IMG/VR virus record: IMGVR_UViG_2667527792_000011
Coordinates: 1 to 3,685 of that record
DNA: 3,685 nt
Source: a virus
Lineage: Duplodnaviria > Heunggongvirae > Uroviricota > Caudoviricetes
Direction: 5' to 3' (one strand)
Shown here: positions 1-3,685 of the stretch, in pieces
Numbering within the stretch: position 1 is the first letter of the stretch
How the letters are laid out: every line of letters starts with the position of its first letter
The notes under the pieces: model-generated
What the model saw: the letters and a program-made list of their open reading frames with translations, nothing else
Databases searched by the model: none
What the model was told of the DNA's origin: nothing
Position numbers and translations under genes: made by a program

Positions 1-450
1 TCAAAGCGCCTTCAGCTGTACTGGCATAACGACATTTATACTGTCGTATAAAATTCGACTGGCAAATCTGGCACTCTCTCCGGCCAGGTGAACCAGTCGT
101 TTTTTTTTGAATTTTATAAGAGCTATAAAAAACGGTGCGAACGCTGTTTTCTTAAGCACTTTTCCGCACAACTTATCTTCATTCGTGCTGTGGACTGCAG
201 GCTTTAATGATAAGATGAGAATCGCAGCAACTTGTCGCGCCAATCGAGCCATGTCGTCGTCAACGACCCCCCATTCAAGAACAGCAAGCAGCATTGAGAA
301 CTTGGGAATCCAGTCTCTCTTCCACCTGCTGATCTGCGACTTATCAACTCCCACAGCTTCCGCTGTCTTCTCAGTTCCAAGCATTGCGATTTTGTTAAGC
401 AACGCACTCTCGATTCGTAGTGCCTCGTTGCGTTTGTTTGCACGAACCAT
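1..450 (-). CDS. cII: cII-type transcriptional activator; N-terminal ~78 aa match lambda CII, C-terminal ~71 aa are unrelated (possible fusion or truncation product)
   Basis: Minus-strand ORF. Translation from the ATG at 448-450 reads MVRANKRNEALRIESALLNKIAMLGTEKTAEAVGVDKSQISRWKRDWIPKFSMLLAVLEWGVVDDDMARLARQVAAIL, matching lambda CII as I recall it, then diverges (ILSLKPAVH...) and runs to a stop at 1-3. The SD-like TAAGGAAATACTTACAT precedes the ATG on the minus strand. The ORF track starts this frame at 510, but that extension covers nutR and is not coding. Lambda homology ends near plus-strand position 216. Confidence 0.7.
   Translation of the reverse strand: MVRANKRNEALRIESALLNKIAMLGTEKTAEAVGVDKSQISRWKRDWIPKFSMLLAVLEWGVVDDDMARLARQVAAILILSLKPAVHSTNEDKLCGKVLKKTAFAPFFIALIKFKKKRLVHLAGESARFASRILYDSINVVMPVQLKAL
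57..108 (+). terminator. Putative intrinsic terminator: two-tier hairpin followed by a T9 run
   Basis: Plus strand: gactgg (57-62) pairs with ccagtc (93-98); inner stem ctggc (68-72) pairs with gccag (83-87) around a 10-nt loop; a run of nine T follows at 100-108. A plus-strand reading frame entering from the left edge ends at a TAA at 49-51, consistent with the 3' end of a convergent gene. Confidence 0.4.
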
Positions 451-467
451 ATGTAAGTATTTCCTTA
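428..467 (+). promoter_or_regulatory. pRE (repressor-establishment promoter) with CII-binding direct repeats TTGC-N6-TTGC
   Basis: TTGC at 428-431 and 438-441 separated by 6 nt, with a -10-like AAGTAT at 455-460. It lies on the strand opposite cII and points towards cro and cI, as in lambda. Confidence 0.6.
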
Positions 468-529
468 GATAACAATTGATTGAATGTATGCAAATAAATG
501 CATACACCATAGGTGTGGTTTAATTGGAT

Positions 530-561
530 GCCCTTTTTCAGGGCTGTGATGTGTAAGAGCG
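530..561 (-). promoter_or_regulatory. nutR N-utilisation site (boxA 553-561, boxB 530-544); the rho-dependent tR1 region lies just downstream, towards cII
   Basis: Minus-strand reading gives CGCTCTTAC (boxA) then GCCCTGAAAAAGGGC (boxB hairpin, 5-bp stem with a GAAAAA loop), located between cro and cII exactly as in lambda. Confidence 0.75.
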
Positions 562-568
562 GTGTTAT

Positions 569-778
<210 letters not shown>

Positions 779-793
779 TTAGTACATGCAATT

Positions 794-822
794 ATTATCA
801 CCGCTAGAGGTAAAACAGTCAA
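794..822 (-). promoter_or_regulatory. pR promoter (drives cro and cII)
   Basis: Minus-strand -35 TTGACT (plus 817-822) and -10 GATAAT (plus 794-799) with a 17-bp spacer; overlaps OR1 and OR2. Confidence 0.8.
796..812. promoter_or_regulatory. Operator OR1 (variant)
   Basis: 17-mer tatcaccgctagaggta; the lambda OR1 I recall is TATCACCGCCAGAGGTA, so there is one substitution, at position 10. Confidence 0.8.
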
Positions 823-834
823 CACGCACGGTGT

Positions 835-836
<2 letters not shown>
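820..836. promoter_or_regulatory. Operator OR2
   Basis: 17-mer caacacgcacggtgtta, matching lambda OR2 as recalled. Confidence 0.8.
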
Positions 837-1605
<769 letters not shown>

Positions 1606-1622
1606 TTACAGGGCGGTAAACA

Positions 1623-2180
1623 TTGGCAAAAATAGATGATTATCAGCCAAGCCAAGTAGAAGTTGATAAAGTACTTTATTGTAAAAAAATAGTTAACTTT
1701 TCTGGCGTTAAATGGAAACAGAAACCAAGTCGCTCTGATATGTGGCTACAAGCTCATATCATCCCCTTGGATGAGGATTGTATACCTATACAAGGGCTAA
1801 AGTTTGAACTGAAATGGAAACCAGATCAGGATTCAGAACCTGATGACCCGATTTCTTACCCTAAAATAAATATTATTGCTTTCTATCATAACAAGAGGGT
1901 TTTCGCGGTAGATACCTATCACTTTGACAAACACACGAATAGTTACAAGGTCGATCATCCGAAGTACCAAGATATCATTTACGGTGCTCATTACCATGTA
2001 TACTATGAAGAAGCTGGATACTATAGTGATAGAATAGCGTTTCCAATCGAAGATGACATAAACCCAGATGACCTGGTAGGGTATTGGAATTACTTCTGTA
2101 AACATCTGAACATAACTTACTCTGGGAGAATACCTTTACCGCTTGAAGATGAGTCGGGGCAAATGGGGTTTGGAATATGA
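1623..2180 (+). CDS. Hypothetical protein, 185 aa, unknown function (cargo gene A in the rexA position)
   Basis: ORF in the same frame as cI, opening after a TAA at 1617-1619. The only in-frame starts are TTG at 1623 (GGGCGG 7-12 nt upstream) or ATG at 1740, so the start is uncertain. The C-terminal half is rich in Tyr, His and Asp/Glu (HPKYQDIIYGAHYHVYYEEAGYYSDRIAFPIEDDINPDD). No transmembrane stretch, Walker motif or resemblance to RexA that I can see. Confidence 0.6.
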   Translation: MAKIDDYQPSQVEVDKVLYCKKIVNFSGVKWKQKPSRSDMWLQAHIIPLDEDCIPIQGLKFELKWKPDQDSEPDDPISYPKINIIAFYHNKRVFAVDTYHFDKHTNSYKVDHPKYQDIIYGAHYHVYYEEAGYYSDRIAFPIEDDINPDDLVGYWNYFCKHLNITYSGRIPLPLEDESGQMGFGI

Positions 2181-2929
2181 TGTGCTCAACAGTGATCTCA
2201 CAACTAGGTTTCGAATGCCATCCAATAGGCAAGACCTTGAGAATTATCAGTCCATTCACTTACTGTGATGATGGAGAGCATGTCGGTGCCTTTATCCGTG
2301 AAGTCAATGGTAGGTATTTAGTTAGTGACAGATGCGATGCCTTAATGAATATGGAGGCAAGAGGGATCTCGCTTACCAAAAAACGACTTGATGAGATACG
2401 ACAATTACTGCTTAAAGAAGGCGCAGAACTCAATGCTCGAGGAGAAATCATTGCTTGGGCAACAGAAAAGGATGTCGGTGCGATTACATCGAACATAATT
2501 AGAGCTGGTATACTCGCATCAACTTTGTCGTTAGACTGGTATCAGCCAGTTCAAGCTGAAAAGTTTGAAAGTATGGTTATTGATTATCTATATCACACAG
2601 AGCTTAGAGAGGCACTTTCTCTTCGTGAAAACGTATATGGCTTGAGTGGACATCAAATTACCGTCCCTGTAACAATAAAAACCGACATACCTAAATACGT
2701 TTTTACATCAAGCGTGAAACACGGAGGAAGCTGGAATAGTGCTTACTCATTGCTTGGGAAACTAATTGATCTTAAAGCTTCAAGTGAGGAGTATAACAAC
2801 AGATTTGTTGTTATAGACAGCGAAGCAATTGGTGATCAAATGCAACAACTCTCCTTACTCTTCCATGAATCAAGCCAAGTTCTACCATTCTCCAAAAGAG
2901 AGACTTGGATTAAGAGACTTGCAGCATAA
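2177..2929 (+). CDS. Hypothetical protein, 250 aa, unknown function (cargo gene B in the rexB position)
   Basis: ATG at 2177 overlaps the gene A stop in an ATGA motif (translational coupling), with GGGG 10-13 nt upstream. The ORF ends at TAA 2927-2929, immediately before a terminator hairpin. No hydrophobic segment long enough for a membrane helix, unlike RexB. Confidence 0.7.
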   Translation: MMCSTVISQLGFECHPIGKTLRIISPFTYCDDGEHVGAFIREVNGRYLVSDRCDALMNMEARGISLTKKRLDEIRQLLLKEGAELNARGEIIAWATEKDVGAITSNIIRAGILASTLSLDWYQPVQAEKFESMVIDYLYHTELREALSLRENVYGLSGHQITVPVTIKTDIPKYVFTSSVKHGGSWNSAYSLLGKLIDLKASSEEYNNRFVVIDSEAIGDQMQQLSLLFHESSQVLPFSKRETWIKRLAA

Positions 2930-2932
2930 TAC

Positions 2933-2960
2933 AACCCGGCCTCAGCGCCGGGTTTTCTTT
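2933..2960 (+). terminator. Intrinsic terminator of the immunity operon (timm-like)
   Basis: GC-rich stem cccggc (2935-2940) pairing with gccggg (2947-2952) around a 6-nt loop, followed by TTTTCTTT. Lambda-like sequence resumes from this point. Confidence 0.75.
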
Positions 2961-3117
2961 GCCTCACGATCGCCCCACCTAAAAACACATAACCAATTGT
3001 ATTTATTGGAAAATAAATAGATACAACTCACTAAACAACGCAATTCTGATCTCTCCTTACATCGCCGAGGCAATACACTCACTCGAAAAAATAAATCCAT
3101 ATAAAAAACATACAGAT

Positions 3118-3134
3118 AACCATTTGCGGTGATA
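3118..3134. promoter_or_regulatory. Operator OL3 (variant)
   Basis: 17-mer aaccatttgcggtgata; the lambda OL3 I recall reads AACCATCTGCGGTGATA in this orientation, so one substitution. Confidence 0.7.
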
Positions 3135-3137
3135 AAA

Positions 3138-3154
3138 TATCTCTAGCGGTGTTG
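3138..3154. promoter_or_regulatory. Operator OL2 (variant)
   Basis: 17-mer tatctctagcggtgttg; lambda OL2 as recalled is TATCTCTGGCGGTGTTG, so the same G-to-A change as in OR1 and OL1. Confidence 0.75.
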
Positions 3155-3187
3155 ACACAAATACCACTAGCGGTGATACTTAGCTCG
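3152..3187 (+). promoter_or_regulatory. pL promoter
   Basis: -35 TTGACA (3152-3157), 17-bp spacer, -10 GATACT (3175-3180); expected start near 3187. Overlaps OL1 and OL2. Confidence 0.85.
3162..3178. promoter_or_regulatory. Operator OL1 (variant)
   Basis: 17-mer taccactagcggtgata; lambda OL1 as recalled is TACCACTGGCGGTGATA, so the same G-to-A change. Confidence 0.75.
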
Positions 3188-3220
3188 TCAGCAGGACGCA
3201 CTAACCACCATTGAAGGTGA

Positions 3221-3251
3221 GGCTCTTAAAAATTTAGCCCTGAAGAAGGGC
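3221..3251 (+). promoter_or_regulatory. nutL N-utilisation site (boxA 3221-3229, boxB 3237-3251)
   Basis: GGCTCTTAA (boxA; lambda has CGCTCTTAA) followed by GCCCTGAAGAAGGGC (boxB hairpin, 5-bp stem with a GAAGAA loop). Confidence 0.8.
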
Positions 3252-3361
3252 AGCATTCAAAGCAGAAAGCTTTGAGTAGCGCGAAATGCAGCTGCAAGAC
3301 AGCAACCGTGGGGATAAGCATCACGGCGCGTTACTCAAAGCTAACTGACAGGAGAATCCAG

Positions 3362-3685
3362 ATGGATGCACAAACACGCCGCCGCGAACGTCGCGCAGAG
3401 AAACAGGCTCAATGGAAAGCAGCAAATCCCCTGTTGGTTGGGGTAAGCGCAAAACCAGTTAACCGCCCTATTCTCTCGCTGAATCGCAAACCGAAATCAC
3501 GAGTAGAAAGCGCACTGAATCCGATAGACCTTACAGTGCTGGCTGAATACCACGAACAGATTGAAAGCAACCTGCAACGTATTGAGCGCAAGAATCAGCG
3601 CACATGGTACAGCAAGCCTGGCGAACGCGGCATAACATGCAGTGGACGCCAGAAAATTAAGGGAAAATCGATTCCTCTTATCTAG
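3362..3685 (+). CDS. N: Antitermination protein N
   Basis: 107 aa, MDAQTRRRERRAEKQAQWKAANPLLVGVSAKPVNRP...KIKGKSIPLI, matching lambda N as recalled, including the arginine-rich boxB-binding motif. SD AGGAG at 3350-3354; TAG stop at 3683-3685. The ORF track's upstream extension from 3272 is not used. Confidence 0.95.
   Translation: MDAQTRRRERRAEKQAQWKAANPLLVGVSAKPVNRPILSLNRKPKSRVESALNPIDLTVLAEYHEQIESNLQRIERKNQRTWYSKPGERGITCSGRQKIKGKSIPLI

Follow-up and report, generated by a model that had tools for sequence, protein, structure and literature searches.

A two-gene cassette of soluble-looking proteins in place of rexA-rexB in a lambdoid immunity region, and its candidate link to phage defence

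Introduction

The site directly downstream of a lambdoid repressor gene is a classic location for exclusion genes expressed in lysogens, and the mechanism of rexAB, the lambda genes found there, is itself incompletely understood. Here we describe two adjacent genes, designated gene A and gene B, that occupy this site in a 3,685-nucleotide stretch of Caudoviricetes DNA (IMG/VR record IMGVR_UViG_2667527792_000011, positions 1 to 3,685; this whole stretch is referred to as the window). Like rexA-rexB, A-B are two genes on one strand that fill the slot from the cI stop codon to the terminator Timm, with the same limits to within a base or two, in the same immunity type and presumably on the same transcript from the promoter PRM. 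The two pairs differ in that they share no sequence or family similarity, and RexB is a polytopic membrane protein with three segments above the hydropathy threshold whereas A and B have none. Other cargo of the slot, in mEp332, HK244/HK542, HK544, CL707 and ev099, resembles A-B in consisting of lysogen-expressed accessory genes directly downstream of the repressor, although the proteins are unrelated; the slot is known as a place where cargo is exchanged. Genes of the BstA type (PMC8585504) likewise lie next to prophage repressors, but BstA is a single protein and is unrelated to A-B.

Among candidate defence systems, A-B resembles PDC-M24, one of 145 untested candidates of Payne et al. (bioRxiv 10.1101/2024.01.29.577857), a cassette of the form FAM_00129>>FAM_00065; the candidates in that work were nominated as genes embedded in BREX, DISARM or type I restriction-modification (RM) loci. 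The likeness lies in the A-then-B arrangement of two adjacent genes on the same strand, in an end-to-end match of B to PDC-M24B, and in a weak match of A to the PDC-M24A models over the half that holds its histidine motif. The differences are that A falls below any confident threshold, with its N-terminal 100 residues unaligned, and that the A-B loci are all prophage immunity regions rather than loci of the kind from which PDC-M24 was nominated; PADLOC would probably not call the A-B locus. A second point of comparison is DS-6/HipAD, an experimentally validated defence system of two genes whose DUF1829 protein is proposed to be a non-enzymatic partner that resembles an antitoxin and probably binds DNA (PMC13092281). 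This newly validated DUF1829 protein belongs to another system than A-B, its DUF1829 assignment has only 78% HHpred probability, its partner enzyme is a HipA-type kinase that is not A-like, and its N-terminal domain is DUF3037, not DUF1828. In terms of Pfam families, B is a bona fide DUF1828 protein with a DUF1829-like C-terminus and A shares the C-terminal histidine half of DUF6978; the functions of DUF6978, DUF1828 and DUF1829 are unknown. A-B is most likely a divergent variant, housed in a prophage slot, of a candidate system that awaits characterisation, and no validated relative of it was found.

Results

The cassette replaces rexA-rexB at exact boundaries

The A-B cassette exactly replaces rexA-rexB. 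The window is a lambdoid immunity region, reversed in orientation relative to the usual lambda map (Table 1), and positions 216-1584 and 2933-3685 align with lambda and mEp332 at 96-99.9% identity, with the cI DNA itself 96-99% identical to both. Lambda homology ends at 1584, one base past the cI stop codon, is absent across 1585-2932, and restarts at 2933, the first base of the Timm stem; between identical breakpoints lambda carries rexA and rexB. Comparison with lambda, mEp332, ev099 and HK542 places the loss of homology at 1579-1586 and its return at 2932-2935, and the GC content of the cassette is 38-40% versus 45-50% in the flanking DNA. No Rex family was found among the Pfam, NCBIfam, PHROG and PADLOC matches of A and B. 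The terminator that closes the cassette has a stem of 8 bp with six GC pairs, followed by a T-run.

The positions of the operator, PRM, PL and Timm are transferable from the annotated mEp332 record (EF120456), in which pRM lies at 686-714 in the coordinates of our locus L014; an offset of +149 through a 99.4% identical alignment carries it into the window. Promoter-like sites in the window are at shuffle level (6 seen versus 6.6 expected), leaving no internal promoter above chance, and an Rfam scan of the window returned no RNA family. In sister phages of lambda immunity the slot carries a single 345-aa protein (mEp332) or an NYN-domain protein (ev099), and in HK542/HK244 two unrelated proteins. 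Slot diversity of this kind is said to have been described by Degnan and colleagues in 2007, reportedly the source of records EF120455-EF120459.

A and B are an obligate pair that moves between immunity types

A and B are an obligate pair. A relative of B follows the relative of A in 79/79 IMG/VR loci, starting 4 or 13 nt before the A stop codon (one locus is cut by the contig end), and in 76 of the 79 a cI-type repressor open reading frame (ORF) lies at most 900 nt upstream on the same strand, the repressors being 26-100% identical to the references. The layout cro, cI, A, B recurs in all five species-representative genomes with the module, from Izhakiella, Yersinia, Xenorhabdus and two Providencia. 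The pairing extends to metagenomes, where relatives of A with only ~22% identity keep a DUF1828 gene that overlaps their end and where an S24-peptidase repressor precedes the pair in two cases, and Pseudomonas phage VB_PaD_phPA-G (PP083311) has the pair downstream of a CI-like repressor. The A-like ORF of this phage (2986-3504 of locus L018) is missing from the deposited annotation; it overlaps, and lies just upstream of, the annotated B-like 'hypothetical protein', and contains the motifs R-V-V-A-I-D ... H-M-N ... H-P-H-L-H ... GQMGFDV.

The cassette travels as a unit among immunity types. It is present at 99% identity or more in 241 of 5,426 complete E. coli genomes, including that of Nissle 1917, and in phages ev017, ev207, Stx1_121427, PhiR57_1 and PhiR63_2. 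In the E. coli genomes and phages that share it, the repressor is only 69% identical and the common DNA begins at window position 1173, inside the C-terminal domain of cI. Three IMG/VR loci (L086, L087 and L091) have a lambda-type cI/cro 96-97% identical to that of window 555-1583, followed by A-B alleles that are ~40% (A) and 51% (B) identical to those of the window and overlap by 13 nt, not 4; since these loci pair near-identical cI with distant A-B, divergent alleles are exchanged within one immunity type. Movement among immunity types argues against a specific interaction with any one repressor. No B homologue was found in plasmid records. In the one unsaturated pair of sequences, dN/dS is 0.12 for A and 0.06 for B, both under purifying selection.

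The start of gene A is non-ATG in 7/7 enterobacterial loci (TTG in E. coli and GTG elsewhere; position 6001 in L003-L007), and Ala-Lys always comes next, while the ATG of B overlaps the stop codon of A (ATGA). Together these features suggest that translation of A is, relative to that of B, low by design or coupled. Between cI and A, an 18-codon ORF (1583-1639) begins with an ATG that shares bases with the stop codon of cI (TGATG) and has its end 14 nt within gene A; ribosomes leaving cI could be handed on by it to the weak TTG of A, or it may be there by chance.

Both proteins look soluble

Gene A encodes 185 aa from a TTG start, and its 558-nt coding sequence (CDS) is identical to one in RefSeq (WP_001062368.1); gene B encodes 250 aa (WP_000968518.1). 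Solubility was judged from Kyte-Doolittle hydropathy with lambda RexB as positive control. The best 19-residue mean is 0.45 for A and 1.19 for B, against a threshold of ~1.6 and a value of 2.39 for RexB, which has three segments over 1.6. No stretch free of charged and strongly polar residues is longer than 5 residues in A or 10 in B, and neither protein has a signal-peptide-like N-terminus. A and B look cytoplasmic and soluble, in agreement with a preliminary description of the DNA that had found no stretch long enough for a membrane helix. As neither protein has a membrane-helix-like segment, a RexB-like membrane-channel mechanism for A-B is to be excluded from their predicted properties, and the earlier view that any defence mechanism here must differ from that of the RexB channel is borne out.

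Other occupants of the slot vary in this respect. The cargo of mEp332 (L014 1457-2494) and the second cargo protein of HK542 (L016 1918-2538) each have one strongly hydrophobic segment, with best 19-residue means of 2.09 and 2.71, and the ev099 NYN protein has no hydrophobic segment, like A and B. From the hydropathy of these proteins, the slot from cI to Timm houses both membrane-associated and soluble cargo.

Gene A carries an invariant histidine motif within a tyrosine-rich C-terminal half

The cluster of about nine tyrosines in some 45 residues, with an HYH and HxK-like spacing, reported for A in the preliminary description is present by count. The protein has 16 Tyr (8.6%), 8 His and 29 Asp plus Glu; its densest 45-residue span, residues 115-159, holds 9 Tyr and includes H-Y-H at 123-125, and the HxK pairs are H89-N-K91 and H112-P-K114. 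Compared with shuffled versions of the protein, the tyrosines show no significant local clustering (p = 0.077), and the gene has a GC content of 37.8% versus 45.5% for cI, low GC favouring Tyr, Ile, Lys and Asn codons. Within the enterobacterial clade the tyrosine positions mostly exchange Tyr with Phe; outside it only position 127 remains aromatic (94%), whereas Y124, Y128, Y133 and Y134 are lost. The tyrosines thus behave like clade-specific packing residues, and the richness in tyrosine mostly reflects aromatic packing in an AT-rich gene.

The polar residues present a different picture. Across 29 sequences, down to ~22% identity, K22, W31, R92, D97, N106, H123, H125, F158 and P173 of A are invariant, and H104 and G121 are kept in 28 of the 29. 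From this pattern the conserved residues fit a metal- or phosphate-binding site. The earlier suggestion that the His/Tyr/acidic cluster resembles a binding surface is partly supported, in that R92, D97, H104, N106, H123 and H125 are invariant or nearly so and under functional constraint; it is not supported for the tyrosines, most of which are lost in distant relatives, and the HxK-like spacing is not conserved, H89 being kept in 17-28% and H112 in 39-44%. The description of A as soluble and rich in Tyr and His is correct but modest, and the invariant histidine motif is of more interest than the tyrosines.

The family of A is small, with 20 representative clusters at E < 0.001 in an exhaustive profile search of 1.84 billion proteins. 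A belongs to phrog_2017 (function unknown; E = 6e-67). Its match to Pfam DUF6978 scores 22.0 bits (E = 2.2e-4), under the gathering threshold of 29.6, and aligns residues 104-164 with positions 81-133 of the 133-position profile; 6 of 18 A relatives match DUF6978 at E <= 0.01. Over nearly the same span, residues 104-163 only, A matches the PADLOC model PDC-M24A (PDLC04536) at E = 4.8e-4, and each of the three PDC-M24A models is matched by 1-4 of the 18 family members, at best with E = 2.4e-4. A word-indexed search from A returned no Pfam-annotated DUF6978 protein. A preprint describes DUF6978 as having conserved His residues that form a putative metal site, which agrees with the motif in A and is not independent evidence of function.

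The AlphaFold2 model of A is confident (pLDDT 82, pTM 0.81), and beta strands make up most of it, alongside two helices. On one of the predicted strands H123 and H125 stand two positions apart and so lie on the same face; this shared face, together with the Glu, Gln or Arg found at position 124 in distant relatives, suggests that in the modelled structure the pair points into the protein or a pocket. A Foldseek search of the model against PDB and BFVD gave nothing usable, the best PDB match having E = 0.2 and a TM-score below 0.3, so the earlier statement that A could be assigned no fold stands, and no buried core of a known domain was demonstrated.

Two candidate relationships of A were rejected. 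Sequence search against PDB returned SAKe, a designed Kelch propeller, at E = 4e-6 with the single sequence and 6e-12 with the profile, a match we regard as an artefact because six identical blades each add ~7 bits for one hairpin-like stretch (RIYAVGGYDGNTHLNS vs KRVFAVDTYHFDKHTNS); no single stretch is significant, and the AlphaFold2 model of A is no propeller. The G-x-H-x-H pattern recalls cupin motif 1, the HIT triad and the JAMM and HNH signatures. Fold searches did not support a cupin, HIT, JAMM/MPN or HNH/His-Me reading: the cupin KduI and a JAB-domain protein aligned with the model at probabilities of 0.07-0.13 over 42-61 columns only, and the flanking E129 and S135 are not conserved.

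Gene B combines a DUF1828 domain with a predicted PD-(D/E)xK fold

Gene B belongs to phrog_1960 (function unknown; E = 2e-106) and matches the PDC-M24B model PDLC04540 at E = 5.8e-10, its residues 2-248 aligning with profile positions 4-253 of 256; the model PDLC04539 is matched at E = 1.1e-7. The DUF1828 match scores 33.5 bits over residues 26-110 (gathering threshold 22), and the domain is found in 24/24 B homologues and matched by the distant partners as well. Searched against PDB by sequence, B gave only ankyrin/DARPin low-complexity matches at E > 0.01. Its AlphaFold2 model (pLDDT 81.6) has two domains, of which the DUF1828 half resembles type III secretion chaperone-like and YbjN-like folds (Foldseek matches SicP, SpcU, InvB and DR_1245). 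The C-terminal domain matches Can2, Card1, Bax1, SfsA, NucS/EndoMS, AF1548, an XisH-like protein and LlaBIII with probabilities of 0.8-0.97, at E-values of only ~1e-2 and TM-scores of ~0.3, as the model has two domains.

For the C-terminal part, residues 155-241, a published HHpred analysis (PMC13092281, Table S5) gives DUF1829, clan PDDEXK, at 98.8%. Direct hmmscan of the window's B against DUF1829 gave no match, and a relative of B from locus L010 reached E = 0.049 and 14.6 bits (cut-off 22.2). Across the wide B family the invariant residues are C3, C14, D32-G-E34, D51, G89-E90, W121, G155-x-S-G158, P164, T177 and D198. The canonical D...(D/E)xK was not found at beta2/beta3, where the positions hold H159 (in 9 of 10 sequences) and the variable K173; D214 is not conserved either, and there is no conserved ExK. 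On the model, the C-terminal domain of B is predicted to be a PD-(D/E)xK fold without the canonical catalytic residues.

The N-terminal region of B contains two cysteines, Cys3 (2183-2185) and Cys14 (2216-2218), that are invariant even in partners of ~30% identity, and C30 and H35 that are conserved within the enterobacterial clade only. This part of the DUF1828 domain could contain a small site that binds metal or is redox-active. A lipoprotein reading of the N-terminal MMC was rejected, as Cys3 is not preceded by a signal peptide.

Both proteins are catalogued as predicted defence genes

Published predictions already include the exact A and B proteins, and B is a member of a catalogued candidate family; the pair is therefore not categorically new. 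In the DefensePredictor study (PMC13092281), WP_001062368.1 has a mean score of 4.9-5.4 and WP_000968518.1 one of 5.6, above the cut-off of 4, and both are labelled 'Predicted novel defense gene'; neither appears in the tables of tested units (S6-S8). A literature search found no paper that names PDC-M24 or either accession in its main text. A link to defence is further suggested by work on E. coli Nissle 1917 by Bury et al., in which no gene was upregulated more on phage exposure than the prophage-3 repressor gene, the immediate upstream neighbour of A-B. Cloned alone, that repressor gave only 215- and 243-fold protection, and a further prophage-3 factor was postulated, for which A-B is an obvious candidate.

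In Nissle 1917 the prophage with the A-B genes (L001, NZ_CP022686, 8749-10354) adjoins icd. Its left side is degraded, with a frameshifted ISEc52 transposase and a truncated integrase, and its cro-cI-A-B-sieB region is intact.

The left end of the window joins phage DNA to the lpxC-secM region

Positions 1-215 of the window are non-phage DNA, with 100% identity to many E. coli genomes: the last nine codons and stop of lpxC, an essential chromosomal gene (1-29, ...FKAPSAVLA before the stop), are followed by the lpxC-secM intergenic region (30-215). At 215/216 the sequence switches without transition to a lambda-type cII at its codon 78, and a chimeric minus-strand ORF of 149 aa results. Of the complete E. 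coli genomes, phage records and IMG/VR loci examined, none has this junction, and one locus with the same phage DNA (L023) has no lpxC sequence at the corresponding point. The junction could be what remains of a truncated prophage, the product of a rare rearrangement or a chimera made during assembly.

Table 1. Features of the window, with the evidence on which each placement rests
Feature	Position	Strand	Evidence
cII	start codon 448-450	-	
cro	569-769	-	
PRM (-35 and -10), presumed cI-A-B promoter in lysogens	835-863	+	position carried over from mEp332 annotation
lambda-type cI repressor, first gene of presumed cI-A-B operon	870-1583	+	HTH_3 plus Peptidase_S24
Cargo cassette (spacer, gene A, gene B) in place of rexA-rexB	1585-2932	+	homology breakpoints, low GC
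Gene A	1623-2180	+	ORF and RefSeq CDS
Conserved core motif codons of A: R92, D97, H104-x-N106, G121-x-H123-x-H125	1896-1997	+	29-sequence alignment
Tyr-rich stretch of A (residues 115-159, 9 Tyr)	1965-2099	+	residue counts
Gene B	2177-2929	+	ORF and RefSeq CDS
DUF1828 domain of B, residues 25-114	2249-2518	+	Pfam and Foldseek
DUF1829-like domain of B, residues 155-241, predicted PD-(D/E)xK fold	2639-2899	+	Foldseek and published HHpred
Timm-type intrinsic terminator directly 3' of gene B	2933-2964	+	stem 2933-2954 plus T-run; homologous to annotated mEp332 Timm
OL/PL region	PL at 3152-3180		
N	3362 to window end		

Discussion

The tight pairing of A and B and their exact placement behind the repressor lead us to consider A-B as one obligate two-protein cytoplasmic module, carried by a lambda-immunity prophage in place of rexA-rexB. 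From their homologous position, cI, A and B would be co-transcribed from PRM to Timm, so that both proteins would be made in lysogens. The module is most likely anti-phage, acting by abortive infection or in a toxin-antitoxin-like manner, and would form a divergent, prophage-borne branch of PDC-M24. An anti-phage function is suggested by two independent computational nominations and by the nature of the slot, and the link to defence draws on matches to both halves of PDC-M24, over the full length of B and weak for A. Within the module A is most likely the enzymatic component, its Arg, Asp, His-x-Asn and Gly-x-His-x-His forming a putative metal- or phosphate-binding catalytic pocket; the grounds for this are the invariant polar motif and the position of H123 and H125 on the same side of a strand. 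For B the most likely role is that of a partner sensing infection or restraining A, on the grounds that it lacks a conserved D...(D/E)xK and that the DUF1829 protein of DS-6/HipAD is the proposed antitoxin-like partner of a toxic kinase; besides its chaperone-like DUF1828 domain, B has a nuclease-fold DUF1829 domain that probably binds nucleic acid. This assignment of enzyme to A and of sensor or restraining partner to B is one that we infer weakly. The reading as a whole, in which two cytoplasmic proteins made together with cI serve defence or abortive infection, A as the enzyme and B as its partner, seems to us about evenly poised between right and wrong.

Several observations weigh against it. 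We found no experimental evidence of defence for A-B or PDC-M24, the nominations being computational, and only 45% of the tested units in PMC13092281 were validated overall. The loci examined are all prophage immunity regions, with none in an RM, BREX or DISARM locus or a classical defence island. The link of A to DUF6978 and PDC-M24A lies under curated thresholds and covers the C-terminal 60 residues only, and the motif of A matches no known catalytic signature among cupin, HIT, JAMM and HNH. Moreover, A gathers 1.5-2 times more non-synonymous change than B in all comparisons, and the PDC tables list more than one partner family for the B family (FAM_00065); a variable sensor A and a constant effector B would fit these two observations at least as well.

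They are also points in favour of a serious rival, in which the parts are reversed. B would then be the effector, a non-canonical PD-(D/E)xK nuclease acting through S157, H159, T177 and D198 or through the acidic cluster of DUF1828, and A a fast-evolving sensor or specificity subunit whose histidine motif binds a ligand or a phage protein. Only B has a recognisable effector-type fold, and among newly validated systems no domain occurs more often than the PD-(D/E)xK nuclease (PMC13092281). That fold assignment comes with weak Foldseek E-values (~1e-2), the canonical beta2/beta3 acidic residue or lysine is not conserved in B, K173 and D214 both vary, and the more enzyme-like invariant polar set is held by A. 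We regard the reversed assignment as a serious rival, although a doubtful one.

It is also conceivable, and rather improbable in our judgement, that A-B is a toxin-antitoxin (TA) or addiction module that stabilises the prophage or immunity region and does not act on other phages. With its two small coupled genes (ATGA) and a weak non-ATG first start in all seven enterobacterial loci examined, the operon has the look of such a module; it is kept in degraded prophages such as that of Nissle 1917, with its insertion sequence (IS) insertion and truncated integrase, and the closest validated DUF1829 case is described as TA-like. No known toxin or antitoxin family was matched in Pfam, NCBIfam or PADLOC, however, no helix-turn-helix or ribbon-helix-helix for autoregulation was detected in B, and the cassette has no promoter of its own above chance; moreover, TA function and defence are not mutually exclusive.

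A role in modulating the lysis-lysogeny switch or induction of the prophage itself, as proposed for RexA, appears more improbable still. The place directly downstream of the repressor in 76 of the 79 loci, whatever the repressor type, would suit such a role, as would the finding of none on plasmids. Against it, cassettes 99% identical stand behind repressors only 69% or 26% identical, and a lambda cI (97%) also carries A-B alleles only 40% identical, a mismatch that argues against specific interaction with the repressor or its operators; in addition, sister phages put unrelated cargo in the slot, including the known exclusion genes rexAB. Finally, that the Tyr/His/acidic cluster is without functional meaning, a by-product of AT-rich DNA that forms the aromatic core of a small structural domain, is highly improbable, because the insignificant clustering, low GC, Tyr/Phe exchange and loss of most tyrosine positions in distant relatives account for the tyrosines and not for H104, H123, H125, D97, N106 and R92, kept at ~22% identity and with a dN/dS of 0.12, and hydrophobic cores do not conserve invariant charged or polar residues.

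The reading of A as enzyme and B as partner admits a bolder and unlikely extension, in which A founds a new enzyme fold, its R-D-HxN-GxHxH pocket is the effector of an abortive-infection system restrained by B, and the pair is the postulated 'other factor' of Nissle 1917. On this extension, that factor would lie behind the complete resistance of Nissle 1917 to lambdoid and Stx phages; in that strain A-B adjoins the only gene for which partial phage resistance has been demonstrated so far.

If A-B should have no part in defence, it is still a well-defined case of modular cargo exchange at exact boundaries, from the cI stop codon to Timm. Found in the probiotic Nissle 1917 and in Shiga-toxin strains and phages, it is a compact soluble alternative to rexAB. 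Were a defence function to hold, it would be the first function for the DUF6978, DUF1828 and DUF1829 domains and for the PADLOC candidate PDC-M24, and it would bring to light a small protein whose invariant His/Asp/Asn/Arg site belongs to a fold without a match among solved structures.

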